A stretch of DNA of 40,838 nt from Asterionella formosa. Lineage: Eukaryota. The position numbers and the translations under genes were made by a program. Shown here piece by piece: positions 8,467 through 37,986 of the stretch (positions within the stretch are counted from its first letter, which is position 1; each line of letters starts with the position of its first letter). The stretch lies in NCBI GenBank assembly GCA_002256025.1, contig NKIB01014757.1:1-40838 (forward strand). Reading direction: 5' to 3'. Below the pieces are notes generated by a model, which was given only the letters and a program-made list of their open reading frames with translations, did not search any database and was not told the DNA's origin.

Positions 8467-11400
8467 TTAAGCAGACACTAGCCCCTTTTGTAGCTCGTCA
8501 ATTATCTCGTTAGGCTTCATGTCGATGTCGGCAACTTCCAGAAGCTCATAAATATTCTTTGTCTTTTGACAATCCTCCACTTTCTTCACAACTTGTATAA
8601 CACTTTGCTCAACTAACTCATCGCTCATATTTACCACAAAAACAGATGACAATTTATCAAGGATGGCATACAATGTAATCATAGGCCTCAATGGCATTGC
8701 AAAATCGTCAATCATCGGCCCACTGGAGGTTCCGCTGTTGTTTTGTCGAGTGGAGGGTTCGGCCTCCATAATAGTGTTGCAAGTCTCCCACTCTGAAAAC
8801 GCAGTGGCTTTGGTAAGACGAGTACTTCCACGTTTGGGCGAGAGGCATCCACTTTCATCGGCCCCAACTGCGTGTCGGCGTCCAGCACAGGCAAGGAGAC
8901 CACACAGAAATAGCTTCTTATTCACAATCCATCGGCGGTCCGCATGAGGCAACTTTTCTTTATTATTTTGATTTGAATCATCAGATCCATTGTTGTCGAA
9001 TAAAATGCAGCACAACCCAGCCATTGGTGCCGAATCGGCAATACCGCGCATGAGGGATGCAGCCGTCGCAGACCCTACACCTTGATAATCTTTGGCCATA
9101 ATAATTCTGCTTGCGGCGAGAAATCCACCACTAAGTGCCCGGGCGTGACTGGCAATATCAGGAGCATCATGCTCAGCGTCGTTCGCGAACATGTCAGCCA
9201 TGAAGAGTTGATAAAACATAAGGGCCATATTAGACGACAATGATCCTCCTCCACAGTCCCCATTTAGGGGCTCCCCGAACGCTACTCGTAAAAGAAGTAA
9301 TCGAACATCGTGGAGAACAGTCCAAAGCATTGATTTCGGCCTTACACCAAGTAGGTTAGAAACAGTCGTTTGGTAGTCAGTCAAAGCCATATCGACAGCA
9401 ACCAGAGGTACTTTTGAGCTTTCTGATGAAACCAAAGGTAGAATGATGTTACACGAAACTCGCGAGTTTCGAAGACTAGCACCTTCCCATTCGCTTTTCG
9501 GAGCCTTTGGGTGAGTTCGATCAGCATTCTTAGCCTTTGCGTGGCAGCTGCAGTGGATTGCGTTTCCGGCCGATACAGTTGTCGTGAACTGCGTAGGTCG
9601 GCGATTTGGAAGCGTTGCTGACAGAGACGACGACGAAACATTCGAAGACTTTCTCAGTGCATCAGCAGCAATCCTAGCAGGACGAAACCAGTCACGATCA
9701 ATTTTGGAATTAACCAACGAAGGAGGCAAGACTGACGGGAGCGAAACCAGTAACATGACGCCTTCAATGCTTCCCGCACTACCACATTTATGGGGCTGAA
9801 TAGTTACTTTCTTCACGTAAGCATAGAGCCCAAGAAGCTCTGATGGTTGAAGCACCCTGCCCTCCTGGCAAACGGCACAGGTCAAGCCCTCCTCGTCTTC
9901 TAGTGCCTCCATTTCTGCTATCCAAGCAGGTAGTTTTGTTTCAGATTTCTTGCTCTTCTTCATCGAAGATCGAGTGTTTCCTGTTCCTTCGTTACCCGTC
10001 GCCGGTGAGGACGAACCAAAGAAATCGAAGACAGGTGCCAGTAACGACGAAGCGCTTATAGGGGCTGTTGCAACAACATTCTTGTTGGACCCTGTTTCCA
10101 GGTTCCCGGCCAAGGGCCCGTGGGCACTCAAGCTCACCAATGCCTTGCTACGTCGCTCTTCCGCAATTTCCTTCTTGCGATCTCTGGTTCTCCGGCGTAT
10201 TGCATTCACCTCCTTAGTTACCACGTCATTGCCTTCCCTTAACTCATCTATTATTGTCTCTGCCAGAAGACCCATACCAAACGTGGATATTTGAGATTTT
10301 TTGTTGTCGGAGGTGCTCTCGATCCAATGACAAGCCTCGAGAAACGATCGCTCTTCATTCTCTTCTCCAAAAGTCACTCCAGCAATAAGCGATTGTGTCC
10401 CTTCGTGGCCTTTAGCTAGCCCGCGAAGCATATCGAAAGCAATTTTCACGCCCTTTCGTTGAAAGTATTTCCGCCATTCTGCCTCGAGTTGCTCTTTCTT
10501 CACTTCTTCCTTCTTTGTTACGGCATGCTTCGGCCACAGAGCTGCTGTCCACGGAGGAGGACCGGATGGAAACCCCTGCAAAACGAAGAAAACAATACCC
10601 TGTACAAACTCACATTTCAGTAGCTCAGATCGAAGTGTGTGACAGACATCGCTTGGAGGAAGGTTGATCGCAGCTTGAACGAAGGTGTCCATAATCACGA
10701 ATCCACGGCTTGTGGTGTGCTCGCTTTCGCCGCAATCGGCAAGTTTCTCAACGGCAACATGGGCGACAAAATGCTCAGCAAGTTCCCTTGACAAAGACAC
10801 TTGGCCATATGTAAGGAATGGCAGCAACTTTGCAATGACTTTGCGTAGCGGCGGGCCCAAGTAAATTGTCCTTAAAGATGAAAGCAATAAAGGAAGAGTC
10901 GAAGTCCCTTGGTCATTTTCCATGTCGTCTTCTGCCGTCTCATCGTCAGTGGAAATGTCGGACGCCAAAGTTTCAATCAACTCTTCTATGAGATCTGCAG
11001 TGGGGTTGTTCACAACCGTAGCGTTCTGGTCAGTTGACGAATCCATGTCACTGGGTTCATCGATGAGGTTCAAAACATCGAGTAGCAGTCGCAAGAGAAT
11101 GGTTGGTGCTCGTGCTTCCACGAGTTTCTTCCGATTGCTCTGCAGCTGGGAGCAATGTCGGAGCAACTTCAAACCAGAACAAGGTGAGCTTTTCATGAAT
11201 TCAGCAAGCGATGGATTGCACTCCATTCGTTTTCCCTTCTTGTTTGTTTTCAATTTTACGTCATCCCGCCGTATACGACGAAGTATATCGCGAACGTGAG
11301 TCCGGATAGAGCGAAGAAGAACACATATGCCTCTACTGTCAGTTACAATGCGGGTCAAGCCAAACTCCTGATCCATGAGTCGTTCACGCTCCTCTTGAGA

Positions 11401-13698
11401 AGATGAATCAGCGGGGGCTTCCGGATCACTGAGCTGCTCAACGTGATCTTCTGTAGCTTCCCCATCAACCCCAACAAGTCGATATGTCACAACCATAGGC
11501 GGCAACGCTGAACCTGGTGTATCCGCAGTTATCGTGTTTCGTCCGTTGCTCCTTTCACCTAAACTGGAACTGAAAACCATAGAAAGGCCCGATCCCGTTG
11601 AAAAGAAAGACGGCGCTGGCTGCCCGGAAAGGAGGGACGACGGGAGAACTGAAGAAGAGTTTTCCATCAGATGATTTCTCCACAGGACCTGATGGACAAC
11701 TCGAAGCTTGAGATCAATGTTGAGAATCTTGTTGCCTACTAGAAGCTCCAGCATTTCCGAACTTTCGGCCATTTGCAAATCATTTGCAATGTAACGACGT
11801 AAATCCCGGACGGTTGGATCATTGTTTCCAACTGATGCAGAATTCGCACCTGCTAACAAAGCTGCCATAGGGATGGGATTACGACTTAGTGATCTACGGA
11901 AAAATTCTTCTTGACTGGGTGCACGCCGCATAAATAATTTAATAGATAGAGGCTTTTTTGGTGGCTTGACAATATCACAAACAGTATGCAATAGGGACTG
12001 TTCCGATGCGATGCTTAGCAAGCGACTTCCGGCGACTGATAGTTTCGGGGTTTCGAGTTGCGGCCTCTGCAAGAAAGCAGAATGCTGGGCAAATAGAGTC
12101 TGCATAGCGGCCCGAATGAAGAAACGTTTCTTGTCTTCATCTGTACCTGCAGAGAATGGAGTCAATGATTCACCGTGCACATTTCGCTCTCGGTTTTCAG
12201 AGGTGAGCAAATCATGATCATTCATATCCTCCATCATTTGATCTCCAAACTCGCGGACTACGTCTACAACATCGGCTTCTTCGTCGTCGTCATTGACAAT
12301 ATCCATTGGGTTGTAGACAGGTTCGTCGTCGGACTCGATTTCATCGTCGTCCTCTTCATTTCTTTCGTCCCCATAATCGCTGTTATCATCGGATTCTTGA
12401 TCATCTTCGTCGTCTTCCACGTGGTGCTCTTTTTCTTGATCTCGTTCGTCAGCATTTTGCTCTTCGTCTTCGCGTTCATCGTCGTCGTCAATGGCATCCA
12501 TCAGTAAATCATCCAAAACGTTTCTGTCTTGTCGTCGGCCCCTAGAACTCGACACTGCTCTTGCCATTGCTGCAGCCGCGGAACTATGCCTTCCTGTGGA
12601 GTCTCCTTCAAGCAAGAGAGATGCAATCCGCTGACCATGTTCAGAGTCACTGGATTGGATTGAGTTTGATCGAGCTCCATCCTTGTCGTTCGATTTAGCA
12701 TTTCCTTCGCGAATCATGACGGTAGAGTCTGGGTCAATCAGTTGCACCAATTGCGAAACGCACGTATCCATTCCCCTCATTGGAGCAGGGAGGGGATAGT
12801 AATCATTCAACGCAGAGTGGGCTACGATGAGGCAGGCTAAAGGACACAAGGGATATTCTCCAATATGAATGGACGGAAGGGTCGAAGTCCAGAGGACGTT
12901 GTTCAATCGTCGAAGCACATCTAGTCTCTTCGAAGAAGTTTCTTCAAAATTTCCACGAGAGGAAGTAGATGCAGCGCGTCGCCTTCGCTTGCTAGTTGGT
13001 GATTCTTCCGTTGCCTTACGTACCACGTTGTCCGTTTGGGTAGCAATAAAATTGAGGAGTACCAAACGGTAACATAAATCCACCAAAAGAATCAACCTTT
13101 TCTGCATTGCCTCCAATGATTCATCTGACTGGAAGACGAGGGAGCTACACTTTCCTCGTGCTTGCGAAGGATGAAGAATTGAAATCAAGTTTACAATGGA
13201 TCTGGTCAGCCACCGGAGACCTCCTGAAGCCACAAATGATTCCTCTTCCCCAGCCAGAAAATGCTTAATCAGACCAAATATTTGAATATCTCCGGGGCAA
13301 GTAGTGTGGCGATCAGCAAATGAAACTAACGCTTCTCGCATTATGGTCGTCGGTCCTTGGAGAAGGAAACAGGAAGCAACCTGTCGCACTCGCAAGTTTG
13401 GCGACAGCAGAGACTGAAAGATCCAGTGCTCCCAAGATGCCGAGTTGCTCGAAATTATAAATTGATTTGGTTGATCTCGTTTCTTCTTCTTTCTTGGTTT
13501 TTTCTTTTTGTATTCTAACTTGCGTTTCTTATGCTTCTGGTGGTACGATGTAGAAGCTTCTAACCGGAAACATGAAGATGTCCACCTAGCAATCTTCCTC
13601 GCGGCTTCGAACCGAGCTAATGCCTCTTTCACCGTTTCTTCCAGAGCTTCTGGACGACCATAAAGCCCTTCCAGGAGCGGGAGAGATGCAGAGTGCAT
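8467..13698 (-). CDS. UBR4: UBR4/BIG-family ubiquitin ligase, C-terminal catalytic part (helical repeats, UBL, hemiRING); about 1743 aa from the first ATG
   Basis: Uninterrupted ORF with UBR4 C-terminal signatures: RAPSQEEFF...ELLVGNKILNIDL (UBL), PMVVTYRLVGVDGEATE, EGLTCAVCQEG...LLGLYAY, TTVSAGNAIHCSCH and EWEGASLRNSRVSCNIILP (hemiRING). The ORF track start at 13740 is TTG; first ATG is 13698; a small upstream exon is possible. Confidence 0.88.
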   Translation of the reverse strand: MHSASLPLLEGLYGRPEALEETVKEALARFEAARKIARWTSSCFRLEASTSYHQKHKKRKLEYKKKKPRKKKKRDQPNQFIISSNSASWEHWIFQSLLSPNLRVRQVASCFLLQGPTTIMREALVSFADRHTTCPGDIQIFGLIKHFLAGEEESFVASGGLRWLTRSIVNLISILHPSQARGKCSSLVFQSDESLEAMQKRLILLVDLCYRLVLLNFIATQTDNVVRKATEESPTSKRRRRAASTSSRGNFEETSSKRLDVLRRLNNVLWTSTLPSIHIGEYPLCPLACLIVAHSALNDYYPLPAPMRGMDTCVSQLVQLIDPDSTVMIREGNAKSNDKDGARSNSIQSSDSEHGQRIASLLLEGDSTGRHSSAAAAMARAVSSSRGRRQDRNVLDDLLMDAIDDDDEREDEEQNADERDQEKEHHVEDDEDDQESDDNSDYGDERNEEDDDEIESDDEPVYNPMDIVNDDDEEADVVDVVREFGDQMMEDMNDHDLLTSENRERNVHGESLTPFSAGTDEDKKRFFIRAAMQTLFAQHSAFLQRPQLETPKLSVAGSRLLSIASEQSLLHTVCDIVKPPKKPLSIKLFMRRAPSQEEFFRRSLSRNPIPMAALLAGANSASVGNNDPTVRDLRRYIANDLQMAESSEMLELLVGNKILNIDLKLRVVHQVLWRNHLMENSSSVLPSSLLSGQPAPSFFSTGSGLSMVFSSSLGERSNGRNTITADTPGSALPPMVVTYRLVGVDGEATEDHVEQLSDPEAPADSSSQEERERLMDQEFGLTRIVTDSRGICVLLRSIRTHVRDILRRIRRDDVKLKTNKKGKRMECNPSLAEFMKSSPCSGLKLLRHCSQLQSNRKKLVEARAPTILLRLLLDVLNLIDEPSDMDSSTDQNATVVNNPTADLIEELIETLASDISTDDETAEDDMENDQGTSTLPLLLSSLRTIYLGPPLRKVIAKLLPFLTYGQVSLSRELAEHFVAHVAVEKLADCGESEHTTSRGFVIMDTFVQAAINLPPSDVCHTLRSELLKCEFVQGIVFFVLQGFPSGPPPWTAALWPKHAVTKKEEVKKEQLEAEWRKYFQRKGVKIAFDMLRGLAKGHEGTQSLIAGVTFGEENEERSFLEACHWIESTSDNKKSQISTFGMGLLAETIIDELREGNDVVTKEVNAIRRRTRDRKKEIAEERRSKALVSLSAHGPLAGNLETGSNKNVVATAPISASSLLAPVFDFFGSSSPATGNEGTGNTRSSMKKSKKSETKLPAWIAEMEALEDEEGLTCAVCQEGRVLQPSELLGLYAYVKKVTIQPHKCGSAGSIEGVMLLVSLPSVLPPSLVNSKIDRDWFRPARIAADALRKSSNVSSSSLSATLPNRRPTQFTTTVSAGNAIHCSCHAKAKNADRTHPKAPKSEWEGASLRNSRVSCNIILPLVSSESSKVPLVAVDMALTDYQTTVSNLLGVRPKSMLWTVLHDVRLLLLRVAFGEPLNGDCGGGSLSSNMALMFYQLFMADMFANDAEHDAPDIASHARALSGGFLAASRIIMAKDYQGVGSATAASLMRGIADSAPMAGLCCILFDNNGSDDSNQNNKEKLPHADRRWIVNKKLFLCGLLACAGRRHAVGADESGCLSPKRGSTRLTKATAFSEWETCNTIMEAEPSTRQNNSGTSSGPMIDDFAMPLRPMITLYAILDKLSSVFVVNMSDELVEQSVIQVVKKVEDCQKTKNIYELLEVADIDMKPNEIIDELQKGLVSA

Positions 13699-14335
13699 TG
13701 GTGAAAGGGTTGTAAACAATGGACTGTTGATAAGGTTCAATAATCAGCGGGCCACTAATTTATTCGAGCACTATGCTTCACCCTGCAAAGAACCCGGAAA
13801 ACAATAATAAGACAGGCATCACACATCGAAAAAACCAGTTTCGTTCCGACCCTTTGCTTATGTACCGTATGGTGTACAATTGGGGGTTTTGGATTGGGGT
13901 TTTTCCCCACAATCTCAATACTCCATATTCCAAAAATCTCCTCGTTTACGTGCATTTCATCCTATGGACATAGAAGTGCCAATGTTTGGCTTTGGTACCA
14001 GTACCTGGTACAGATATGTCAAGAATATAGCATCAATGGCTATAATGAGTCACAAGGACTGTGGACTCGACTAAAGTCAAATGAGTCAAATGGTGCGTTC
14101 CCATGTCAAGAAGCTTGCTAACAAGATTGATGTCTTAGATCAATCAGAAGAAGGTTTACATCAACGAAAAGGGAACACGAAGAACAGGTTCTCGAAGTGT
14201 GATGAATGGGATTGAAACTTATTTTTAGTTTAAGCTTATAATTAAGAAACAGCGAGAATTGACAGAGTAAGGTCAATAGCGAAAACTAGCACAAAGGCTA
14301 GCAGCAGAAAGAAGATAACAATACTACTAGTGGTA

Positions 14336-17237
14336 CCACTTAAAAACTGTAAGCCACCGTTATTATACTCTATCTTTCAACTAAAAATATTCATGTAATT
14401 CAACAATCAAAACTTGATGCAAGTACAAAGCTTATGCTAGACAATGCTTGCTGCTATACTATTAAGGAATCAGTTTTGATTCAGTGTATCAAGCCATGCA
14501 TGAAGAAATAATTTTTCCAAAGTCACTAAGATTATTGCATAGCGGTGGCTTACAGTGCATATTTTTCTATGTGTACATTTATATATTTTCCTCCCAAACT
14601 GTGTTTATTTTTACTCTGTTTATTCTACAAAAATTATTTTCTTATTACTTTATGTTTTACACTTTTGCAGGGCAGCATCATCGTTGAAGAATTCTTCTGA
14701 TGCATTACATTAATCTCGAGCTTCTTTGCATCCAATTACTTGATTGCGGAGTCTCATACTTCATCACGGAATGGTGGATCAGCAGTAGCAGTTGTAGAAG
14801 GAGAGGGAATAGCAACAGGAGGAGGTGCAGTAACAACAACCACAGCCATAGGAGGTGTATGGAGAGGGAATGGTGGCTGCTGGTCACCACGGTGATTGGT
14901 GTTGTCGAATCTTGTAATCATAGCTTGCCTTATTTGTGGAACCGGCAAATCACCTGATTGTTTGTACCAATGCACCATTAATTTCAATTCTGGCACAGAC
15001 ATCTGTTCTTTTGTTTTGTTCTGTTCCTTCAATGTAAGTACTTTTCCGCAAAGTGTATTGAATTCTTGTTGCCTTTTTGTTTCTTTTGTACTAATGACGA
15101 TGTCTGAAATTCGCTTCCATTCCAGTATAGCAGCAAGAATATTTGGCCCAAGGGCAAAGGTTGCTTTGTGCAGAGGCCAGTAGTCCTGCTGATATCCTCT
15201 TCTTGTGTCCCTCAATGTGTGAATCCACTGTCTCCTTTCTCTTTCTAGCATGGGCCTCCTGGTCGATTCCATTTCGCTCATCCTCGCGTTTGCAAAACTC
15301 GTTAATTCTTCTAAAAATTGTTCCAGCAAAGCTAGTTTGGAGGTTTAACTCATCAGGAGGGAGAGTGGCAGTCTCTGTGGGCGAATTGATGTTCTGTTGT
15401 GGTTGGGTCAGTTGAATCTCAGGGTGAAGCAAGACATAATAGTTCAGGGGATACCATCCTTGTTCATAAATTGCTTTCTTGTTTGTTGCAATATTAGCAA
15501 AGGAATTTTCCCATGCCGTATTCACCAGTCCAACAAGGTCAACCTTGTTAATTGTAAGCTCTTTCCTGTGATCTGCTTTTAAGGTGAGCAATTTGCGTTT
15601 TGCTTTTGTGATGTTCATTTTGAAACAACCGTTTTGCTCACTACTGTCTCCAACCTGCCAGTAGCTTGTACCATAAGAAACATCAATACAGACTGTCCAA
15701 TTGTTGTGTACTGGGTTGTTTATGTATTCAAGGAACAAAATGTCAAATCGAGACCCATGTCCATCAAGTATTAGGAATGGTGGGGGCCCATTGTTTTGAG
15801 GAAAGATGCCAGAGTCATCCGTGTGCTTTATCATGCCAACCAGAAGCTCTGAAGCGATTTAGCCGTTTTCCGACACACAACAGTATGTAGGCAACTGTTT
15901 CCCTTCCACATCACAGACTGGTCCTTGTGGATATCGTTTTCCCTTTCCGCTGTTGCCATGTATGTTTTCATCCTCTCCTTCCCAAGCAGCAAACGGATCT
16001 AGGCCAAGCACCCATTCGTCTTCCAGGGCTTTTGCGGCAAAAATAATTGTGCACATTATTGGTTGACCATTGGCTGCAGTGAATCCTAGGACAGTAAAGT
16101 GTGCATCTTTGGTTGGACCCAGATTTGAGGACGGCCACCTGCAGTGCAAAGAAACTTTTCGCCACCAACATTGCCATCTTTTGTTTGGGATGTATTGGAA
16201 CAAACTTCGTCCACAAAGAGGAGACGGTCAGGACTGATTAGCTCATATTCACTTGCTAACCCAAACGCTTCCTGCTCCTCAACTACTAACCCTTCTTTTG
16301 AGTACCATTGTTTGCTTGGGTTTCGTCTTGCAACTCCTCCAGCCACCATTTCTTTATAGACTTCTTTAGACATTGATAAGAAGGACTGGTACATACACCA
16401 ATCTGCATGTTTGCTCTCAAATGTCAATGTAGACACCATGGTTGCAGTTGATGGTTGAAAGAGGGATGAACCAGAAGTGGTATTAATAGTAGTACTAGAC
16501 TTAACTTCTAGTTTAGCACTTCGTTTTAGTTCATTCTTCACTTGGTTAACAGATATCCAAGGGAAAATGCATTCTTGCTTAGCTGATACTGTCCTAGAAA
16601 TAGCACCATAAGGCATTTTTCCACCATTGTTAGCCTTCTTAGCTTCTAGCTCCCTAATCACATTGTTAAGACACCTCTGAACACTGACCAACTCTTCAGG
16701 AGACAATTTCTTTCGAGGCAAGGCATCGCTTTGTCGAGGCCCTTTCGAGGTCATGATGTTGGTATTGTGACAGGTGATGGGTGATTGTTGTGTTTGCATT
16801 TAATTTTTGTACTCATAATTCGGGCGCACCAGGAATTCCTATTTGACGTTTTCCATTAGTGAATTTATCTCTTTATTTTGGCGCACGAGCGAAAGCGCAA
16901 TGACGTTGTAGCCATATTAAATAAATTTTAGAGGATACTAAATTAGTTTTCTAGTGGAGGAATATTGTTATACCTGTATACGAATGTAAAAGGTGATGCT
17001 TGTTGCTCAATCGAGTAAACGTGAAAATATCCAATTTTCGCAATTTCACGTCGACAGCAACCTTTGGGAGATAATACCTAATTAACGATGTACACAATGC
17101 AACAATACAAGTACGGAATTATTTACTCGCTATATAAATCTGAACAACTCGTTCGTGACAATAAATAGCGTATCTTGTTAACTTAGTTCAAACCGTGCGT
17201 TTACTCCGTTTAGCGGTGGCTTACAGTTTTTAAGTGG
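14336..17237 (-). mobile_element. pogo/Fot1-like (Tc1/mariner superfamily) DNA transposon with both ends, defective transposase
   Basis: Perfect 24-bp TIR CCACTTAAAAACTGTAAGCCACCG at 14336-14359 and its reverse complement at 17214-17237; TA on both sides (14334-14335, 17238-17239); encloses DDE_1 transposase fragments. Confidence 0.9.
14754..16799 (-). pseudogene. Frameshifted DDE_1 (pogo-type) transposase
   Basis: Four consecutive ORF pieces in different frames carry LLFVDE, HFTVLGFTAANGQP, SENG, FLILDGHGSR and YGTSYWQVGDSSEQNGCFK. Confidence 0.85.
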
Positions 17238-17365
17238 TACATCAGGTAAGACCTACGTAAGAGGAAACCCGTCAGACAGGAAGGAGTAAAAGACCTTTTA
17301 ACACAGATACCCGGTATGAAGATACACAACAGGCATGTGATTGTTCTACATACCGGTACCAGTAC

Positions 17366-17986
17366 CAGGGAATACATGTTGAGACAATGAATCAAACAAA
17401 TGAAATTTCCCATCATCCATTAAACAGACCATGATAAAATGATGTTTAATTTTAATTTTGTACACAACTGCTTGACCACAATGGAATTATTGGATGGAAT
17501 ATTTCCACTAAAGTTTGAAAATGAAAAATTCCTATTTCACACATATACTGCTGGTATTTAGACTAACATACTGGTAGATGAGGTAATCATTCAATAATAA
17601 TTTTTTTGCAGAAATATTGACAACAAAAATTGAAATCGCTGCTGGATGTGGTTTGCTCATTTTTCATGATACAGCCAAAGGGGAGGCAGGCACTATTGAA
17701 TCCGCAGTGGCTCACTTGATAACTTATGCTAGATGATTATTTCTATCTACTATACAAATGAATGAGAATATTTGAGAAAATGAAATCTTGGAAATGGTGC
17801 TTGTAACAGCTCAAAATGCAAGAAAAAATAACATATTTTTGTACTGAGATTCATGAACACTAATTATCATTGGTTCATTTTGCAGTTAAATACAGACATA
17901 GTACTTAGTAGACATTCAACAATACACTGCTTGCCCTTTTGGTAACTAGAAATTTCGCATCGTATGAATAGACACTAATTCCCCTG
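17366..17986. mobile_element. hAT-like non-autonomous element, about 620 bp
   Basis: Ends CAGGGAAT...ATTCCCCTG (short imperfect TIR). Flanks ACCAGTAC (17358-17365) and ACTAATAT (17987-17994) differ only by three transitions, compatible with an aged 8-bp TSD. Second copy at about 1440-1830; no coding capacity. Confidence 0.6.
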
Positions 17987-18576
17987 ACTAATATGATTAT
18001 AACAGACAATGGTGGTACTGGAATGATAAACTATAATGCTACCGGGTACTGTGGTACACTGGTATGCATGATATTGAAAGCCCACATATCCAACAAGTAA
18101 GTACCACAAATATGTTATTTTGAGGAGTCATCATTGAGGTACTGCACTATAATGTTGGCAGACCAAGGATTTGTGATGACGTGGCATAATTATGAGCCAC
18201 TTTATGCAAATACATGTGCATTCCAGTAAATTTGGTCAATCTTTGCTGAAGCTGAGAATTGTGTGATGAACATATGCTCAAATTAAACTCCAAGGAAATC
18301 ATTGCTTCATGCAACATTGAATTTCCATTTCAGCCAAATCAGGGAATGGCCATGTATTTCATTGGATTTGGCTGGATGTGAGCAAGAAGGGGGGTTCTCA
18401 TCTCATTTCATGATGCTGTTTTGTAACTTCATTGAACCACCTGATTAGTTGTTTTGCTGGGAACAAGTCAATGCCATCTCCATGCAGAAAGTATCATGTA
18501 CTAGAGAGAAATCTAGGAAAACCATTGAAGATATAAAAATATATCAATTGCATAGATTGCTACATTAATTGTCCAT

Positions 18577-20409: not shown

Positions 20410-20700
20410 GACGACGACGGCTGATTAGAATCATGTATAAATATTATCGAGAGGCTGTGCGTGATAGGAGACAAAAGTAACAAGGTGTTTTCCATGAGAA
20501 GCGATCAATAAGTACCAGTGTAACAACGATACTTAAAGTCGAATTCATGGGAATTCACATGCATTGTCTTCAATCCTCACGCTTTGGACACGAGCGACAA
20601 AAGTATAGAGATGTAGAGAACGACTTCAATTCATCACACAATTCAGCGAAATAAAAAGCTAGATTCCTCCAGTGGCAATATTACTACCGGTATGTATCAC

Positions 20701-20812
20701 TTTCAGGAAATGAATACTGTATTACTTCCAGAAAATTCCTACCGGTGTAAATTTCAGGAAGTATTAATATGACTTCCAGGAAATGCATTTGGAAATTTCA
20801 GGAAATGCTTTC
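20701..20812. promoter_or_regulatory. Cluster of heat-shock-element-like nGAAn inverted repeats upstream of the GH63-like gene
   Basis: TTCcaGAAaaTTC (20726-20738) and GAAatTTCagGAA (20792-20804) are perfect three-unit arrays; further TTCagGAA dyads at about 20702 and 20753. Confidence 0.4.
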
Positions 20813-26800: not shown

Positions 26801-29800
26801 ATCAAGAGAGCTCCAGTCCAGATCGATTTATTGCTGAATCATTGATAAATTCTATCGCTGACGTCTTGAAGAATCCTATTGAAGTGTCGAATGCCGTCTG
26901 GTATAGGCAGGTTGAATCTACGAAAACTGGATGTGAAGAAGGAACAACAGCTGAATGCTTCCCGCTTTCGCAGAAAGACGGCAGATTGCTGCTCATGGCA
27001 GTTAGTCGTTTACCAAGGAGTGATCAAATTCAGTGCCTCGCAAGCTTCGTGGATTCTCTCTTCACTGGCCTCACAGAATTGCAATCATTCAATCATCGAA
27101 AGTTTGTCTGTGACCACCCTGAAGTTTCTGCTTTTATTGCTCGGGTTATAACCGTGTGTTCAATCATGATAACTATGGTGGATGTCGGTCCAAGCCTCAG
27201 AGATGCACTTTTTGAGCAAGTAGGCTCAACAATGTATCAATTACCATTTCTGGTTTCAAGGCTGGACGCAATTAACGCATTTTCTAGTCAAGACCACTTA
27301 TGGCACAAGCGAGAAAGTTGTTTTATGGGAGTTTTCACAGATTGGGACTCGCCAATAATCCCGGACGTCGGCACTCTAGTGAAAAAGGACACACTGAGCC
27401 CACTTAGTCTGTCTCATTTCGAAACAGTTCTGGAGATTGCATTCAATATTGGTCTAGATGCTGCAAAGGACGACAGAGGATACCTCCTATTTTCAGCTTG
27501 GAATGCATCCGGCCGTCGAGCATTGTGGGATCAGAAATTGCCATCAGAGATTAACGTGCGGTCGTACTCTATCAAGGAGCTAGTGAGTCCTAAATTTTTT
27601 ATGGACCTCCGCGAGGATATTTGTTTGGTCTATCGCCAAATCCATGGCAGTGGAGGTGGATTTGCAGATTCGATTCTGTCAGCATCATGGAACAATCGAG
27701 ATCAAGACAGTCTTTCTTGCCCACCTTTGAACGAGATGCTTGCAGCAATGATGACGAAGGCTGAGACTGTAGTCGATGCATTAGTCGAGGGATTACAGAC
27801 AAAGAATTGTGTAGAATTGAATTCATTACTTTGTTACTCCCTTATCGAAGCGCTTTCTGTCTACATTGCCTTTGTTGTATCGATGCACACAAAACCTGGA
27901 GATTCCTTCTTGAAGAAAGCAAGGCATATTTTACGGAGAAAGCCATGCCCTAGACTCCGAACTGGGGATGATGTTGCAATCATGGCATCTGCATTGTCTG
28001 AGGACGATGTTTCTGGTCGTCCGGAAGGTGACTACCACGAAGATCAAGAAGAAGGGAAAGTGGGTGCTTTTGTAAGGCTTCATGATGCATGCAACGCTTT
28101 TGGTTCCGCGCCAATTTATCCTGACTGGCTGGATGAATCATGTCGCTATCACGAAGGTATTTCAAATACTATTGCCCTTGATCATGCCGAGCGAGCATTG
28201 CGATGCCTTAATTCACTTAATCAGGTTGCGTTTTCACGCTACACTGAGTCACTCAATGAGGTTTTAGGAAGTTTTGCAACGGATTCGGATAACTTGATCA
28301 CCAGGACGGGTATTGCAGTCCGAATTTGTCTACAATCACAAGAAGAATCAAATGCAATGAACATTGGGTCAGACGAGGAAGGAGAAGGTGACGGAGAATT
28401 TGTGAGTTCTGTAGCTTCGATTGTTGGTTTGGATGAGGCAGCGGTAAGGTTTTTTCTCCATAATGTCGAGTGTCAAAACCGTAAGTCATCGAAAAAAGCC
28501 TGGTGCCCCAATTCTGCTCAGCGTATCTGTGGTTTCATTCAAGATAGAAACATGCACATTGTGGGTATGGATGCATATCCTGCTGAGTATCGAGCATGCG
28601 GTGAATGGGAGTTGTTGCTTTCAGAGACACTCTTGGGGGCCTGCTTGAATACCGATATTGAACGCGGTGTTGACGCGAAAATGCCTTCGTTGACTGACCA
28701 GTCCCACGCCTATAGGAATGGAGTGAAGGCATATGCAACTGCAGAACGCTGGAGAAAAGTATTTGAATCAGGTGTGTCTCACCTTGCACCTGTTACAGCA
28801 TTGCTTCGATTCGGGATGAGTTGCGGTGCTGGACGAAAAGCACACCCTTTTAGTGATGGCAAGGTGGCAGAATGTACAAAAGAGGTTAGAGTCAATGAGT
28901 CACTCCCAATGGAGTCAGCAGTCATAAATATTACTGAGAATGGGAAGAACGCATTTTTCCAGACACTCCGTCTTCTGTCTAAAATTTCAATGTCAAACAG
29001 GGGAGAAGTTCGTTTGAAACGCGCATGTTTTGCTGCAGCATCCAATCTCCTGGTTGATACGGACAATTTCAGCCAACTTGAGGCCATGAATGATATTTCT
29101 TTTATTTTTTCACTGTTGCCCCTTCTCACTAAACAATTGAAGTGCTCTCACTTTGTTGTTGGAGATACACCTGAGATGCGGTGCTTCTTGCTGGACAAGC
29201 TTATCATCCTTCTTCAGAGTCGTGGAATGGCAACCCTTTACTCGCATGGCAGCTCGCCTCCAATATCGATGATTGTGGCCTATTTGAGAGACGATGCCTT
29301 TCTCAAAATTGATACAATCGTTGCAGCATCAGTTCCTTGTAGTCACCTTGTTGATGCAGAAATTGAAACTGTTGGGGAAAGTAAAGTCATCAAAGGAGGA
29401 AAGCTTAGAGAACTTGTACAAATCCTATGTGATCGGCGATTCGAGACCAATTATGAGCTACGATCACGCCTCGTTGGCGTTCTTTGTTCTGTTGCTGAGG
29501 ATGACTATAGGTTGCACACTTCTGTACCACAACCTAAAGCAATGTGTGCTCCTTTGTTAGATCAGCTGGTCAAGGCACTTTCTTTGTCTGGTAAGAGACC
29601 AATACAATCCATGATAAGAGCATCATTACTGAAACACCATGGCAATTCAGGCAACGCAACTTTTGGAAGTCTTGTTGCACATTTGTGTCGCTTCCTGTCA
29701 CTTCTAGTAAGTACGCCGAGCTTTGTTGAGTCGAATGTACCTGATGAACCAAGCACTGCGTCAAGCATTTTTGAGGTCTTGATGGAAGGAGTTGAGCAAA

Positions 29801-32800
29801 ACATGCTATGGTCTCCAGAATCTGGTGATGACACAGCATTGACACTGACTTTTCTCCTAGGAACCTGTGAGTCTAAGCTGCATTATATAGGAAATGTTCT
29901 GTTTGACCTTTCACGGTCTAGGGCTGATACCTGGAATGCACAAAATGAACTCCACATGCTCCCTCTTGAAAAGTTGTTTGAATTTGTCCGCAGTCTCGCC
30001 AAGGCGCTCTCTATGCGCTCGTTGGGAACTGTTGAAATGGAAAAGTCTGAGTCTTCTTTCACTGGCCAAGACATTTCAATCTATGCAGATCGCAACAAAC
30101 TTGATAACAATATTGGTCATGGCACATTGTTAGCACCAACAAGCGCAACACCACGTGCTTGCTCCTTTGTGCTCAGAAGTGGATTCCATGCCCAGCACTG
30201 GTATAATTGCTATACATGTGGACTTATTTGGGATAAAGGCTGCTGCACACTCTGTGCCTTAACTTGTCATTGTGGCCATGAAGTGGCATATTCTCGACAC
30301 AGCTCTTTCTTCTGTGATTGTGGGGCTGAAGTTGCCAGTGCGGTTGATGAGAATCGAGTGACTTGTAAATGCATTAGTCCTCTTTCCAGCGAAGATGCAA
30401 ATAAAATGTTTGACTGCGATATTGCAAAAAGTTTCCTTGCAAAACCAAAATCCGAGTCTCCCACAACTTTCATTTCATCAAAATTTGAAACTACCGTGGA
30501 CTCGGCAAAATTGGTATCTGTCCACGATATTGCTGCTCTAGCATTCCCTATAAAAGCAGCCATGGCCATGCAGAAGTTCAAGGATGCAGCAGACAATTCG
30601 AAGTGGACATCATTGCTCTTCCAGCTCTTGGGGAATCTCAACTTCCCTGCTGAGGAAAATGATTGGAGTACAATGATTGATTTTGGTCAAGGGTTTGGTA
30701 TTGGTCATGAAAAGGAATCCAACTCACATGAATCTCTGACTTCAAAACTTCGTAGTCGATCTGGAAAAGTTATTTCTATTGATAGAATTACTGGTATGGC
30801 ACTTGTGCCCATTAGAGCTGCCAGATCAGGTGCTTTCAATGTAAAGCTCTCATTAGATACCACGACTGATCGACTTAAACGTGCTGTGCTTTTGAAAAAT
30901 GGAGTCAACCGCAACATTCTTGCTTGTGATAGTAGAGGACGGTTTATTCTTGCAGAACCATGTTCTCTCCTCTTCTGCTCTGCTCTCCCAACTGTGAATA
31001 TGACATTCATACCCGACGCAATAGAGAATCTGAGTGCGAGGTCCCAAATGAATATCCTTGGTTCTGCCACGGTGAAGTTCAATATTGTGGGTGTTAAGTT
31101 GTGCATTGAAAATGAACGGCACCTTGTAGTATGGGGTGTCTCGGAGGCCCTTGTTGCAATCCTCAGTCCACACTGTGACTCCATTGAGCGTTCGATTGAT
31201 TTGAAAATTGATCTAGATCGCAATGAGGGTGAAGCTGACTTCTTAATAAAATGTGAGTGGATTCCTGGTTCTCAGTTCACTGTTGCTGTAGTCTGTGGAA
31301 CAGCCATAAAAGTTTTTGATATTAGACAAACAGAAAATAACCGAGCTGCCCCGTCTGTCAGCTACAGCTTGGCTCAAGATGCAATTGTCAGAAATGTGGC
31401 ATTTGTCCCTTATCATGAGACTCCTTTGAACTTGATCAAATTGTACATACTGCTTGACACTGGAAGATTGCATGCTGTAGAGATGCGATTTGATGCCAAT
31501 GGCGAGATTGACGATCATGCGTCACGGTACCTGGAATCGGGAGACTGTGTTGCACTTCCAACAGAAGGTGTAAGTTCCTTTCAAGGCCTTGACCCTGCAT
31601 CTGCAGGTTCGACATCCAGAAGTTTAGGGGAAGGCTCCAGTTTAGATTTCCTGTCACAGAGTAGGCTGCTTCTTTACAAGTGTGTATCCTCGTGTGTCCT
31701 GGCTTTGGTTCTTGACAACAAAGCCAACGTGGTTGGCAGTTTTGAGTTTCTCCCAAATGTTATAACTTCTGACAATTTAGGCTTTGGATCAGAGGGGTTT
31801 TATATGACTGGGCCCTACACACTATGGACAGAGTTTGGTATCGTCCGGAACGAGGCTTTTCGGGTTCTCTGTGTCGCCAAATCTTCACGAACAAACCAAC
31901 CGCGATTGCTTTCTGTTGAGTTCAATGATCATTATACGAGAGTGAAGGAGTTTACCTGGTCTGTTACAACCTCCGTGGGGCTTGGTCTTAGCCTATGCTC
32001 CTCATTTGAGGGACTTGCGGCATTTTCCTCTCCTGCTATCTGCTGTAACAATGAGAGTTTCAGGGAGCGAGCGTACGCCAGTATTGTCACGTCCAGTGGA
32101 GCCATGTTGATCTACGGTGAGGATCAAGAGGAATGTGGCACGACGTCTGCGGCCACGATTGAAGCCAAAGATACCAAAACAAATGCATCTATTACAATTT
32201 TTGAAAGGCTTGTTGACATAAGTGACCACAACGATTTGACATTCGGAGGAGATGCTGTCGGGAGCGATCCTGAAGGCGCAAAGATGAAGCTATCTGTGAA
32301 TAATAGTATGTCCCTACTTAGCCCTAGCAGGGAAGGTTGTACTCTTACAATTTTCCTATCAAATTTGTCTAGCAGCAGCGGGGAGAAGAATACAGAATCC
32401 TACAAAAGGCGAGAAACAAGAGCTGCAGATATAGAAACTCCCCCGCCAGCTTCCAAGGAGAACCGCGATCAACAAGACCTTGTGATTGTTGCTTTACGAA
32501 TTCTAGTTGGCTCCACTTCCCATGAATGTATTCCTCGGCAACTGCTTGTTGAAGGCCGTTCTCATCAGTTGACAGCAGATATGAAGCGATGGTATGATGT
32601 CCCATTCACAAAAATGGATATTCTCCTCGGGCTCCGCAATGGTTTTGTGACTGTTGGAGTCGCTTCTTCATTTTCAGGAACAAATCCAATGATCGATGCA
32701 ATTCAGGTTTATGCGATTGACAGGAAGACCATAAGTTCTTGGGTCCCTACTGTTTGTTCCCACCCAATGATACTGACATTCTCTACACAGAATGTTGTTA

Positions 32801-35800
32801 CTTCTCCAAACCCCGAAGACACAAATCTATCGCTTGTACTAACCTTAAGAGCCCTCAAACACCTACATCATATTCTCGACTCTGATTGGAAGCAAGGTAC
32901 AGTTGAAAGCGTTATCTTGAAACGCCTTGTTCGTGCGATTGCAGTTAATGGAAACCAAAAACTGAAAGAAGCAATGTTTTCGTTGCTCCAAGAAGTGGTC
33001 CCAGACGAAAACGATAGGCAGCTTTTTCTTGATGAGGCTACCCTCTCCGGTGTGGCGAAAAACTTAAACCTAGCACTTGAAAAATTAATCGGAGGAGTGG
33101 ATATCGAAGATGACGCACTTCGAGTTGTGCTGATACAGGCCATGAGAGGGAGTTTGAAGGCATCTATTAATATTGCGGAATGTCGGCCGAGAAACTATGC
33201 CTTGTCAACTGAGAAACTCATCTCTGAAAAAACCTTGAAGGGTTCAATTTCAAAGTTGGCTAGAGACTTGCTAGAAGAAGCTTATCAAAATGATCAGATT
33301 GTTATTGCCCTTGTTGATGACGTCGTGAAATTGATTTTGCTGGAAATAGGAATTTGTCATAGTTTGATTGGAGTCGAAAAGGAATTATTTCCTTCCATTT
33401 CCTTGATTGGAGAATTACTCCATTCGTCCAGTGCATCAGTTGTTCAAAGATGCAGCAATGCAATTGCGGAATTCGTCGAGAGTAAGGAGAAGAGGCCCAT
33501 TGGAAGCTCAATCGATAAAATCGTCGACATGGCATCGCAGCCAATTGCCTACCAGTGTGATAGCTGCTCCAAGTTTCCAATCATCGATTTGAGGTATACT
33601 CTTCCAGAAGGCGACAATTATGATATTGATTTGTGCACTAATTGTTTTCTAATTGCTGATCAGTATGCTATGCGGCACCTTTACGACGACAGTTCGACCG
33701 TGGTTATCAATGGAAAAACTATAGGCGAGGGAACAAAGCTTTCTTGTCGCGAAGTTAATTTGATGCGACCTGTTCCAATTTTCAACGGGCCACTGGTTGA
33801 ACAAGCGGTGATGGAAGTGAAGACTGCAGTGGCACATGGGAACTCAATAGGGAAAGGATCATTTGATGAAGACTCGTCACTCAAGAAAGCACTCAGTCGC
33901 CAAGAGAACATGGGCGAGTCAGTTGACTTTGCTCCACTAGTGGAATCTCTGTTTCATGATATTCTTGAGCTGACTTCCTCTGTACTTTCTAGCAGCGATG
34001 CTGAAAAAATGTCGGATGTGAAGACCAACTCTCTCCTTTCATTGGTTCTTCGTTTTATTAAGACTTCAAAGAACGAGGAAGTTCATTTATCGAGGGCAAA
34101 GCTGTTCGCAATGGTCGTCGCCAAGCATTTATCAACGCTTTTGAGCGACCTGTCACGTAGCAATGCAAAACACTCTAGGAAACTTCAACTCATCAACTGC
34201 CTCCGATCGCTATCTCAGCTGTTGGCAAGCAACTACGGCAGTGAGGCTCTAGTTTCAATTGAATCATCGTCTATGGCGATGTCGTCCCCTCCAAAATCTA
34301 AAGACAAAACCGACCCTCGTTTTGTTTGTGATGAGCATGTTGTTCCTGCAGTGAGGCGTAGATGCTCTCGTGGCATCCACAAGAACCGGCGCTTTTATGT
34401 CTGTGGGGTAGAAAGAAGGCATAGATGTACATACTTTAGGTGGGCTGATGATGATGAAGAAGAATTGGAGCCTTCTCCGCCGCAATCAGCATTCTCGAAG
34501 GAGATGGAGACAACTCTGTGGAAGTTTATGGAAGAGCCCCACCAGAAATCGCAAATACCCCTCAGTACCCAGTTGTGTGACCTCCTCGAAAGCGAATTGA
34601 TTAACCACGACAGAAATATAGATTCTATTCTTCCAAGCGAGGTCAAGTCCAGTGGACTGCAAAACAAGTCAGGCGCAAAATCGCTGACCTTGGCCAGCAT
34701 ATTTGACCGGAAACGCGCTCTTGCTGAACTGAATGACAGTGTGTATTGTAGCAGAGAAAAGCTTCTCGGAATCAGCGGTGATTTCCTATTGATGAACGAG
34801 TCGCGTAACGAGGCATTGTGTGCACTTGTAGACGAGATGGACGAGAAGGACGTGGAAGACAAAGTTGTGGAGGCCATCCTTGATTTGGTTTCAGCTGTTG
34901 CTGGTACAGTGGTGAATGACTATTCCCACGATGACTCGAACGCGCATGCTCGGTGGTTTTCACTTCTCTGCGAAATCATTAGTTTGAGTCCGTCTGAACA
35001 ATTTCGTTCGCAGGCTAAGAGAGCTTTGAAACGCCTCTGTGGGGGTAGACGAGCTCTTTACCATAGTGTTAGAGACCACTATGTGTTTGGCTTTCAGTTT
35101 AGGCTGTTGCTGCAGCATGCGTCAGGGTCACTTCAAGCATCCTTGGATGTGCTGGAACAAGCGAAGCAATGTGGACCACACTGGTCTGACGAACCGTGTG
35201 CCTGGGAAACTATTGACGCTGGGGCGCTCCTGGGGACACTTGACCTCATCTCTGAGGACACCTTGTCTGTTGAGAACAACAAAAGAATTGGAGCAATACT
35301 TGACGAGCTCATTAATGTGACCAAGAGTCGTGGCGGAAATTGGAGGCAATTTTGTGGTCTGTTCTCGTTGCCTCGCACAGAGCGAAATCTCAAGTCCAAC
35401 GCGCACAACGATCATCCTATATCGCAAACTGATGAAACCAACTTCTCTGGCACTCCGCCTATTGTTTTGCTACTATGGGTGGCATGTTCTTTACCAGGTC
35501 CAAACCAAGTGAAGGTCTTGAAGCTGATCGAATGTGCATTAACTTCAGATAGCAATGGTATCCAATCTGAGTCACTACCTGATGGTCTTGATGTGGCTGA
35601 CGATGATACCCACAGCTTGGACGGTACCCCTACAATTGAAAAAAATGGTTTGATGCCACCAGGGACGAATCCTCTGGCTTCAGTGATTATTAATAGTTGC
35701 CCAGAAGAAATTTTGCTTTCTCCTGAAAAGGGTCTCTCGGTCAATGAGTTGCATGCTTTTGTTTTGCAATTTGTTCTTCGAGGTCGCTCACAGGAAATCC

Positions 35801-37986
35801 GCAAATTTTCTTCTCTAGTAGCGTCAACGCTGTGCCAGCAACTCTCCCATAGCTGCATTGGAAGTCTATTCATGAGCCTAGTCAGCTACCCTTTTACAGA
35901 GATTCATTCTTATGGATCCTCATCAATTCAATTTCTTCAATTACTTCAAGCATTACTTGGTTTCATGACCGACTCTGTCGATGTACTCGACCTATTCGAG
36001 GTGGCAAGGAAACTTACCCAATGCTTTTGTGATCAAATGTACATGCTTGGAGCGAATGGACGAGGAAATAAGGTGTGTACATTTGAAGCATCGGGACAGG
36101 GGCGCGAAGCTGTCAGGAAGCGCTTTGATCTATCAAAATGTGTCCACTGCAACCGAGTGAAGCCGATCACTGCAAAAGGAAACAACTTCTTGTCACAACA
36201 ACAGCGCCAAAATCATGGCGCGCGAACTTCATTAAACAGATCACGTTCATCGTCACGGTGCAACACACCAGTCGGAGCTATGGATGGACTGCCATGGTTG
36301 CCAGAGCAAGTCAGACCGTACATCAAGGGTCAGTTGGACGCTTCAATTGACACTTCAGTAAGCGACGAGTTCAACCTCTTTGTCCAACTCAAGTGTCGTT
36401 TGGCTATATCTGATGTTCACCTTACAATCAATGACCCCCGAGGTCGGTTTGTGAAGACCATTGTTTTATACTTTACCCCACGACAGGTCAACGATGTTGC
36501 AGAGCTCAAGTCAATAGACTATTCAAGTCGCTGGCAGCAGTGTGGTATGCTTTCCTTAACACGTGGAGCAACTCGCATTTCATATACTCTTCCGGTTTCT
36601 ATTGTAGCTGCAAATCTTAGGTTTGAGTACAAGGACTTTTTCGAACGGCCTGGTGGTTCAAGGGGCGCCAACGGTTCTCCTATTCTACATTGCCCGAGGT
36701 GCACCAGAGTTGTCAACAACGCTCACGGAGTCTGTGGACATTGTGGAGAAGTTGCATTTCAGTGCCGAAAATGTCGCCACATCAACTACGACAGATTTGA
36801 TTCCTTTCTCTGCGTCGAATGCAGCTATTGCTCAGCTGGCACATTTTGTTACGAAATTACAGCTGGGGTTGCATCAAATGCGGTTGCAATTGTTGATGAT
36901 GAAACTTATTATCGTTCTGTCAAGCTCTTGAGAGTTGCGACAAACCTCTATTGCGAGCTTAAGGGCGTTCTGGAAGAAAAAATACGAACTGCTGACAAGA
37001 AGAGGTCACGGACTGCGATTCCAGATAACTTTGATGGTCTGGGTCCAGATTTAAAGCGTGTCTTTATGGGTGAACTTCCCAATGATAGTGGCAACAGAAA
37101 CACTTTACATCCTCCATCGGAAGCAACCCGTGCTCGCTCATTGTTACGATTGGCCCGATCACTACGAAATGATACAGACCGATCCAGCAATCGTCGCGAG
37201 CTGCTGGTTCGTGAAGCATTCTTGGGATCAAACGCAGGGCATGAGCTCGCTCTGGAAGACTTCGGTGATCCGGATGGTGATTTGGCCGGTTTTGTCAATG
37301 TAGAGCGATTGAGTTCTGACACTGACCCATTAAGTCGGCTCGTGGCAAGCATTCAAGGTCGAAGAGAAAATATGGAAGTTGTTGCAGATCTCAATATCCG
37401 TTCTAGTAATGCCAACCGAGCCAATCGCCCCCTTGCCCCTGATGCTGGATCATTTAGTAATACGAAATCGCTCATGGAAGAATGCGAGAAACTTTATCAC
37501 CTAATGCGCGAGGCAGAACGCGAAGGTGTTGAGTTAGCTCGTCGCATAAATGCATGGCAACGCCTTGAGCACAATGCCTTAGCTGAGATCCCTCACCCTT
37601 TGCAGCTGGAAGCAAGATTTACTCCAACGCATTGCACAAAGTGTAGTGGACCAGTTACTCTCCACTTGCTAACCTTGGTTATGCGGCTCTTCCCTGATAT
37701 GTCCGGAGTTCCATTGACAAAGGAGTTTGTAAAGGCTCTTTTTCTGGAGCCTCAAAATCTGAGCAAGGATTTATTTGATTTGAAACGCCTTGCAATTACA
37801 ACACTGGCACGAACAAGTGAGGCAGGAGCCCAATTGGTTCTTGCTGAATTACAGGGAAGATTGAAAACATCAAGCAACAGTGCGGCTGCACAAATTCTTG
37901 GCAAGCTCCTGGCTGAAGGTGACTTCCCCTTAGCTCATCAGTTTGTCACACTTGCAAGACAAACCTTGGGTAGTGGATTTCTATGA
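23887..37986 (+). CDS. UBR4: UBR4/BIG-family giant protein, N-terminal substrate-binding/scaffold part; predicted exons 23887-23948, 24052-26202, 26283-37986 (4638 aa; 4603 aa if it starts at ATG 24095)
   Basis: UBR box CSF...QHWYNCYTC...CCTLCALTCHCGH...FFCDCG (30160-30372), beta-propeller-like region, DOC-like segments (about 32480-32712 and 36376-36645), ZZ-like finger (about 33550-33650), GRF finger (34327-34449), Cys-rich CPRC...CGHCGEVAFQCRKCRHINYD...FLCVEC (36691-36840). The 80-nt intron GTAAGT...CTAG (26203-26282) joins the two long ORFs in frame. First intron (23949-24051) is less certain. Confidence 0.88.

Follow-up and report, generated by a model that had tools for sequence, protein, structure and literature searches.

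A UBR4/BIG-type ubiquitin ligase encoded in two complementary halves by separate genes in the diatom Asterionella formosa

Introduction

UBR4 occupies a central, conserved place in protein quality control. Ligases of the UBR4/BIG family extend K48 ubiquitin chains with UBE2A/B, form a ring-shaped dimer and are made as one polypeptide of about 4000-5700 amino acids (aa). Here we describe a locus of the diatom Asterionella formosa (contig NKIB01014757.1 of assembly GCA_002256025.1; the whole stretch of DNA analysed, positions 1 to 40,838 of the forward strand, is called the window), in which the parts of such a ligase are divided between two genes, one encoding the N-terminal portion (N-half) and the other the C-terminal portion (C-half). 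We consider it likely, with a probability of roughly 0.8, that this division reflects a real and ancient fission of the giant ligase UBR4/BIG which has become fixed in diatoms.

Results

The two genes of the locus

A first-pass annotation, made from the letters of the DNA, had reported two long open reading frames (ORFs) placed head to head about 10.2 kb apart. Both were present on opposite strands, at 8467..13698 (minus) and 26293..37986 (plus). The short strings quoted at that time were also found, HCTKCSGPVTLHLLTL and LARTSE near the end of the plus-strand ORF, and ARKIARW, WIFQSLLSP and VRQVA near the start of the minus-strand ORF. Since the open frames run for 1743 and 3897 codons and are homologous to UBR4 over their length, they are not due to chance. 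The plus-strand gene had been thought to carry its own ATG and stop within the long ORF (3897 aa); the stop at 37986 stood, whereas the start had to be moved further upstream, to an ATG at 23887 which is joined to the long frame by RNA splicing. The features of this gene, the N-half, were as follows.

join(23887..23922, 24050..26200, 26281..37986), plus strand: coding sequence of the N-half, 4630 aa, from RNA contig joints and the spliced frame
23721..23922, plus strand: exon 1, with the 5' untranslated region and the ATG at 23887; RNA contigs X16 and X8 begin at 23721 and 23746, respectively
24050..26200, plus strand: exon 2, bounded by the GT..AG joints 23922/24050 and 26200/26281
26281..37986, plus strand: exon 3, running to the stop codon, from the ORF and the spliced frame
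30154..30330, plus strand: UBR box, aa 1288-1346 of the plus-strand ORF, matching the UBR4 UBR box in PDB 8j9r/8j9q (E 1.2e-14)
33547..33651, plus strand: ZZ zinc finger (PF00569, E 1.7e-4, 21.8 bits against a cut-off of 21.4)
34363..34452, plus strand: candidate GRF-type zinc ribbon (PF06839, 21.1 bits, below the cut-off of 25.9)
36316..36912, plus strand: DOC2-like domain with a Cys-rich zinc module, aligned to human UBR4 3563-3733 and BIG 3323-3500
37633..37983, plus strand: conserved C-terminal tail of the N-half, from the CxxC motif HCTKCSG through ...AAQILGKLL..DFP..LA..L

Two separate studies, a polyA library (X16) and a lake metatranscriptome unrelated to it (X8), yielded RNA contigs that contain both GT..AG joints. 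The spliced N-half had the same length as the database model P0139, from which it differed at 41 of 4630 positions. Its best PDB match was Arabidopsis BIG (AtUBR4, PDB 9qt9; 4.1e-64), followed by human UBR4 (3.1e-58), while a PDB search with only the last 397 aa of the N-half did not find UBR4. Pfam zf-UBR gave no match at E 0.01 or better in the window N-half and is precomputed on several diatom N-halves; PF06839 is likewise precomputed on many of them. The DOC2-like domain overlaps the region of human UBR4 (3538-3721) removed as DOC2 in the paper on the SIFI complex (PMC12286842). Thus, the UBR box, the ZZ finger and the DOC2-like domain, i.e. every substrate-facing part found, sit on the N-half, as do the GRF-type ribbon and scaffold.

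The minus-strand gene, the C-half, comprised the following features.

8467..13698, minus strand: C-half gene, for the putative catalytic-arm subunit; single exon, 1743 aa, stop included, from the ORF, PF13764 and PDB matches to the C-terminal parts of UBR4/BIG
9205..9600, minus strand: core of the hemiRING E3 module, C-half aa 1367-1498, matching the human UBR4 E3 module in PDB 8b5w (E 5.4e-25)
11599..11946, minus strand: UBL-equivalent domain, about aa 585-700, aligned to BIG 4121-4239 and human UBR4 4333-4429
12139..12501, minus strand: Asp/Glu-rich low-complexity linker before the UBL, about aa 400-520, read in the translation
12664..13698, minus strand: conserved N-terminal anchor region of the C-half, aa 1-345, from alignment A1 and profile matches

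The C-half protein matched PF13764 (E3_UbLigase_R4) at E 5.5e-91 and, in the PDB, the C-terminal parts of Arabidopsis BIG (9qt9, again the best match, at 1.8e-37) and of human UBR4 (1.1e-33). In A1, an alignment of 43 diatom C-half sequences, C1274, C1277, H1382, C1385 and H1386 were invariant. The UBL-equivalent domain was recognised by the match of aa 585-712 to BIG 4121-4239 (i-Evalue 9.5e-7), the alignment to human UBR4 4333-4429 being weaker; the human deltaUBL deletion removes UBR4 4342-4434, and long Asp/Glu-rich linkers tether the human UBL (PMC12286842). Every chain-extending part, namely the UBL and the hemiRING end, is therefore encoded on the C-half. The partition of domains proposed in the first-pass annotation, from the UBR box through the Cys-rich domain on the plus-strand gene and UBL with hemiRING on the minus-strand gene, was borne out by these PDB and Pfam matches.

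The anchor of the C-half contains, in order, an LPLLEGL motif, a basic amphipathic helix ending at W39, a K/R-rich patch and an HWL..SL..R105 motif. Over its roughly 330 aa, P7, L9, L12, H91, R105, W270, P286, L287 and L290 were invariant or nearly so in A1. The atlas neighbours of the anchor are HEAT/ARM-like at low recognition, which hints weakly at such a fold.

The dense Lys/Arg patch, KHKKRKLEYKKKKPRKKKKR, lies at 13490-13540 (C-half aa 54-74) just after the N-terminal helix, and many diatom C-halves carry a similar one. It may serve as a nuclear localisation signal, or it may belong to a basic site of the calmodulin type.

Transcripts and assembly at the locus

RNA and DNA runs were compared over positions 8000-27999 of the window in the form of assembled contigs, not raw reads. 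A polyA-library RNA contig covered 8156-13709 without a joint and ended 11 nucleotides (nt) upstream of the C-half ATG; it also entered the convergent aldehyde dehydrogenase transcript and so does not represent a single mRNA. A metatranscriptome contig from a second study covered 9038-13604 of the C-half. On the other side, the N-half contig of the polyA library began at 23721 and was 14,190 nt long; if it is colinear with the genome, its end would lie near 38117, about 130 nt past the stop at 37986. The RNA contigs compared thus stopped at 13709 and started at 23721, and none had a joint linking the two halves. At the DNA level, contig X2 from an independent study spanned 11945-14042, i.e. 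across the C-half start into the spacer. Each half is its own gene with its own RNA contigs.

Complementarity of the halves and position of the break

In BLASTP comparisons with 25 single-chain homologues from plants, insects, a red alga and protists, the N-half matched before the C-half, colinearly and with no overlap, in 25 of 25. This agrees with the earlier claim that the two genes are adjacent, non-overlapping halves of UBR4/BIG. The last strong match of the N-half ended at about human UBR4 3733, its CxxC segment matched weakly at about human 3868-3903, and the first strong match of the C-half ran from residue 585 onward, starting at about human UBR4 4332 or BIG 4121. Profiles narrowed the interval. 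The profile of the first 340 residues of the C-half matched, in fused relatives, the segment that directly precedes the UBL (P0122, 2.9e-9; plant BIG, 7e-5; mayfly UBR4, 8.5e-4), and that of the last 358 residues of the N-half matched the preceding segment, at about 3620-3669 of plant BIG.

The nearest outgroups in the tree described below, the single-chain relatives P0121 (4926 aa), P0122, P0123, P0124 and P0262, carry the CxxC tail motif; after it come, in turn, a motif of FPLGEGV or LPLPF type, a basic W-helix and an HWL-type motif. These proteins are continuous across the diatom break, with about 60-95 helical residues between the mapped ends of the N-half and the C-half, where diatoms stop and restart. 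Since both ends map there in the fused relatives, the cut falls in the helical scaffold after DOC2. By these alignments the break maps to the helical-repeat scaffold between DOC2 and UBL, about 260 human-equivalent residues before Gly4301, the hinge that carries the catalytic arm of human UBR4 (PMC12286842).

In human UBR4, calmodulin grips a helix around Trp4105 (PMC12286842); in the same region it and the KCMF1 pin stabilise the arm at its base as well as the C-terminal dimer interface (PMC7618180, PMC12286842). The first-pass annotation had placed the cut just before the calmodulin-type helix. The position agreed with this; the alignment did not reach significance. The profile of the 43 sequences aligned the HWL..SL..R motif (C-half 91-105) to human 4117-4150 with an i-Evalue of 470, not significant alone, although this alignment is colinear, has the correct spacing from the UBL and lies about 20 residues past Trp4105. 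The basic amphipathic helix ending at W39 and the K/R-rich patch sit just before the HWL motif in diatoms, and fused relatives have a similar W-containing basic helix at the place of the W39 helix. It is therefore plausible by position that the cut adjoins the segment equivalent to the calmodulin helix. An IQ motif label for the head of the C-half was dropped, as a loose IQ-type pattern occurred in only 13 of 43 heads.

Conservation of the split across diatoms

Homologues of the C-half were sought among proteins of 958-3051 aa and those of the N-half among proteins of 2143-6820 aa. The C-half search listed 120 matches of 1019-2612 aa, all with PF13764, among them proteins of the named diatoms Seminavis, Cyclotella, Epithemia, Nitzschia, Fistulifera, Conticribra and Thalassiosira. 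The N-half search gave 48 diatom-type matches, of which none had PF13764, as against seven of seven plant BIG matches. By BLASTP, N-half sequence was present in 0 of the 120 C-half-type proteins and C-half sequence in 0 of the 48 N-half-type proteins, i.e. 0 of 168 were fused. Transcripts labelled 'type:complete' were available in MMETSP for both halves.

The ends of the proteins were equally regular. N-half types ended 26-43 aa after the AEILG-type motif in 46 of 48 cases; of the two exceptions, one had a variant motif with a normal end and the other was a truncated fragment. Among C-half types, 48 of 120 started 2-77 aa before the LPLLxxL motif. The same break was thus recovered in other diatoms, as the first-pass annotation had suggested might be looked for, while linkage of the two genes varied (head to head, tandem or on separate contigs). 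The split apparently extends beyond A. formosa to diatoms generally.

A search of longer proteins returned 18 matches with no named diatom protein among them; it spanned only 3052-5000 aa, a range that leaves room for a fused diatom form of about 6300 aa. An exhaustive search, unrestricted in length, compared the conserved 1184 C-half residues with 1.84 billion representatives, and the best 150 matches were considered. No fused form of diatom type was found among these 150: all matches of at least 44% identity were at most 2386 aa long, and the seven that exceeded 3000 aa were 32-36% identical. The intermediate matches P0243, P0247, P0290 and P0305 were fragments of fused forms; P0288 and P0313 (2270 and 2527 aa, 24-34% identical) gave C-half-type matches only and may be fragments or separate splits.

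A quick maximum-likelihood tree was calculated from the shared C-terminal region (58 rows, 35 split and 23 fused; 875 columns; LG+G4), with the Shimodaira-Hasegawa-like approximate likelihood ratio test (SH-aLRT) as the only support measure. The rows were hand-picked from the matches as full or near-full C-halves plus all long fused proteins; the root was not inferred, and the tree carries a long-branch warning. All 35 split rows lay on one side of a branch with SH-aLRT 100, opposite the 23 fused rows, so that one change of state suffices.

Gene order in other diatoms

Of 52 metagenome loci, 12 had at least 3 kb upstream of the C-half start. Head-to-head order was seen in L015 and L018, which encode the same proteins, with start codons about 0.7 kb apart and a Pseudo-nitzschia-like C-half, and in L014 at a distance of about 6 kb. 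In L038 the genes were in tandem, the N-half lying upstream on the same strand, 3.6 kb from the C-half; the interval 6216-9911 of that locus holds two further genes, for a VKOR-family protein (plus strand, E 3.6e-19) and for an amine oxidase (minus strand, E 6.1e-47), and the C-half of the locus (P0106) is an early branch of the split clade. Source names add that the two Epithemia halves have adjacent locus tags, that those of Nitzschia sp. Nitz4 are 2.1 kb apart on one scaffold, and that both halves of N. inconspicua are on one 5.4-Mb contig; for these three, as for Thalassiosira profunda and Seminavis below, the source names do not give orientation.

Spacer and neighbouring genes in the window

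The start codons of the two genes in the window are 10,189 bp apart. The interval and the adjoining gene comprise the following.

13699..23886, no strand: spacer between the start codons, with a terminal inverted repeat (TIR) transposon, further repeats at about 20.0-23.4 kb and an unrelated gene that is expressed
14333-17240, no strand: TIR DNA transposon of 2.9 kb, with 30-nt TIRs at 14333-14362 and 17211-17240 that are 97% complementary
18577-20409, minus strand: gene of unknown family, 610 aa, with a hydrophobic stretch near the C-terminus; RNA contigs 18614-20403 and 18676-20610 from two studies
6648-8466, plus strand: aldehyde dehydrogenase gene (PF00171, E 3.4e-123), interrupted by a GT..AG intron of 92 nt (8064-8155)

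The transposon carries decayed ORFs on the minus strand (14754-16799). DNA depth over 14.0-17.3 kb was 5,000-47,000 as against about 96 in the flanks, which indicates a very abundant family of DNA transposons; the 20.0-23.4 kb part of the spacer is also repeated. Pfam gave nothing above cut-off for the spacer ORFs at 14754-16799 and 18577-20409. With a transposon, other repeats and another gene in it, the 10.2-kb distance is due in part to insertions. Spacer stretches devoid of RNA cover are not evidence of silence.

Just upstream of the N-half start, at 22000-23400, polyA-library contigs of 60-71 nt had a depth of 842-3266, with raised DNA depth; the stretch looks like a repeated, transcribed element. 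DNA contigs X2 and X6 joined 17370 to 23440, omitting 6069 bp including the 610-aa gene, and the omitted part was covered at similar depth by other X2 and X6 contigs. A deletion allele was considered too weak a reading, as one side of the joint has only 20 letters; the joint may be a repeat artefact or a structural variant.

The aldehyde dehydrogenase gene converges on the C-half, and the 3' ends of the two probably overlap, because one RNA contig runs through both genes.

Discussion

Relation to known UBR4/BIG ligases

The diatom locus shares with human UBR4, as present in the SIFI or UBR4-KCMF1-calmodulin complex (PDB 9d9z, 9nwd, 9qws; PMC12286842, PMC7618180), a UBR box, a DOC2-like Cys-rich domain, a helical scaffold, an Asp/Glu linker, a UBL and a hemiRING end in identical order. 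The human ligase is one chain of about 5183 aa, whereas the diatom has two genes of 4630 and 1743 aa, cut near the human calmodulin/KCMF1-pin region. Like plant BIG (PMC7618180), the diatom N-half has its own ZZ finger; BIG in turn is a single chain, and the diatom total of 6373 aa is longer, with large low-complexity inserts. The UBR4 structures of 2025 (human, nematode and plant) are all single chains of about 4300-5200 aa by PDB chain length. The hemiRING with PF13764, the UBR box, the DOC2-type domain, the acid-linked UBL and the colinear order of the family were thus all found, and a single polypeptide was not. Judged by sequence, the locus is an orthologue of UBR4 that is not made as a single chain. 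We found no published description of a split diatom UBR4/BIG in a full-text search of a library with few subscription journals.

A proposed two-subunit ligase and the points that weigh against it

The cut does not lie at the hinge: the C-half keeps about 330 scaffold-type residues with invariant positions, and the N-half keeps a conserved tail. For this reason we infer that the N-half tail and the C-half anchor reassemble non-covalently. Since calmodulin and the KCMF1 pin stabilise human UBR4 near the break, it is conceivable that calmodulin or a KCMF1-like cofactor clamps the two halves, and the product would be a UBR4-type ring with the catalytic arm as a separate subunit. Complex prediction with the window sequences, without alignments, for the N-half tail (358 aa) and the C-half anchor (345 aa) gave an ipSAE of 0.00 with an uncertain fold of the partner itself, and so leaves the question of binding where it was. 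The gene orders fit a simple history in which the fission took place in situ, an inversion then probably gave the head-to-head pair of the window and other pennate-type lineages, and linkage was later lost in some lineages. With a spacer as short as that of L015, a shared promoter region could co-ordinate both subunits; in the window this spacer would have been stretched to its present length.

Taken further, these elements would make the diatom enzyme an obligate two-subunit UBR4, composed of a scaffold/arena subunit and a detachable arm that docks by its N-terminal anchor at the calmodulin/KCMF1 site. Loading of the arm might be regulated, for example by calcium, or arms might be exchanged; those of centric diatoms have gained UBA-like domains. 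A single in-place tandem fission in the diatom stem would have been followed by an inversion giving the divergent, shared-promoter pair of pennate-type lineages. This fuller proposal is tentative, and we give it somewhat less than an even chance.

Several observations weigh against the fission as read here, or against its extension to a reassembled ligase. The strict LPLLxxL pattern is missing in 72 of the 120 C-half types, mostly shorter models or variant spellings. The diatom-wide and diatom-only scope rests on named diatom matches and on sequence clustering. Contig data leave the true 5' and 3' ends, the strand and the relative level of the transcripts unfixed, and the 3' end of the N-half lies outside the compared positions. 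The mapping of the calmodulin helix is a non-significant alignment backed by colinearity, and reassembly into one ligase is drawn from sequence. The N-half was not found in eight of the 12 metagenome loci with enough upstream sequence (L003, L004, L010, L007, L027, L033, L035 and L041), a weak signal of non-linkage because conservation is poor over the N-terminal part of the N-half and the window spacer itself is 10 kb. From source names, the T. profunda halves are on different contigs, and those of Seminavis likewise; together with the eight loci, T. profunda indicates that linkage is not required. Some centric C-halves of Cyclotella/Thalassiosira type have gained UBA-like domains, which hints at some autonomy: P0049, P0064, P0115 and P0117, of 2456-2612 aa, have precomputed PF14555 and once PF22566, which the window C-half does not have.

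Alternative explanations

The last of these points lead to a different view, namely that the fission is real and its products are no longer one enzyme, the C-half being a free, chain-extending UBL-hemiRING ligase and the N-half a scaffold or N-degron receptor with no catalysis of its own that works through other ligases. Loss of linkage in T. profunda and in the eight loci would fit such independence, as would the UBA-like domains of Thalassiosirales-type C-halves, which may provide ubiquitin or substrate contacts of their own, and so would the window spacer, where a transposon and another gene have done away with a compact shared promoter. An autonomous arm, however, would be expected to shed its anchor, and the C-half keeps about 330 aa of conserved pre-hinge sequence homologous to the segment with which the scaffold continues in fused relatives. 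The N-half tail is also conserved and ends at a fixed position, and the named diatoms in which both halves were found keep both. We therefore regard separate functions as unlikely.

The remaining three explanations had been named in the first-pass annotation as ways in which its claim could fail; none was borne out. One gene might have been wrongly inverted in the assembly, and the halves would then be contiguous in the actual genome. The same head-to-head picture would result from just one inversion if one of its breakpoints lay within the gene, and the region is flanked by repeats (high-copy depth at 14.0-17.3 kb), at which assemblers err. Against this, the independent DNA contig over 11945-14042 crosses the C-half start, the RNA contigs end at 13709 on one side and begin at 23721 on the other, with no joint to the opposite half, the stop codon falls at the same conserved place in 46 of 48 N-halves from many assemblies and transcriptomes, and 0 of 168 relatives are fused, so that an artefact of this kind has next to no probability. 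Joining of the two transcripts into one mRNA and polypeptide, by trans-splicing or a similar process, is raised only since the pieces are exactly complementary; we found no support for it and consider it hardly credible. Contigs may miss rare joined forms, but the N-half contig has the stop and, if colinear, about 130 nt more, the C-half contig ends 11 nt before the ATG with no joint, complete-labelled MMETSP ORFs exist for each half separately, and in L038 two unrelated genes (VKOR and amine oxidase) stand between the halves. The two genes might, lastly, be paralogous fragments, with diatom genomes keeping an intact full-length UBR4 at another locus, for which the fused proteins P0121-P0124 and P0262, as nearest outgroups, could be candidates. 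Both halves are, however, present in RNA contigs, the residues of the catalytic module are invariant, and none of the 18 long matches is a named diatom protein. If both forms were in every diatom, clusters of the two types would be expected in similar numbers, whereas fused-type clusters are few (7 of the best 150 matches exceed 3000 aa), and no full-length form of diatom type appeared in the exhaustive protein search. Paralogous fragments are thus very improbable, and an ancient fission of UBR4/BIG is the reading that we retain.

Implications

Public annotations call each half 'BIG' or 'UBR4' without noting that it is half an enzyme. A natural cut at this place would mark a site in the UBR4 scaffold that tolerates a break and would define the catalytic arm, together with its anchor, as a unit that can be separated. 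For biochemistry it provides pieces of UBR4 that are smaller and can each be expressed separately, and the calmodulin/KCMF1 site becomes testable as a docking clamp. For the diatoms themselves, the locus provides a clear example of giant-gene fission, with tandem, divergent and unlinked orders of the two products, which may serve as a rare genomic character in diatom phylogeny.

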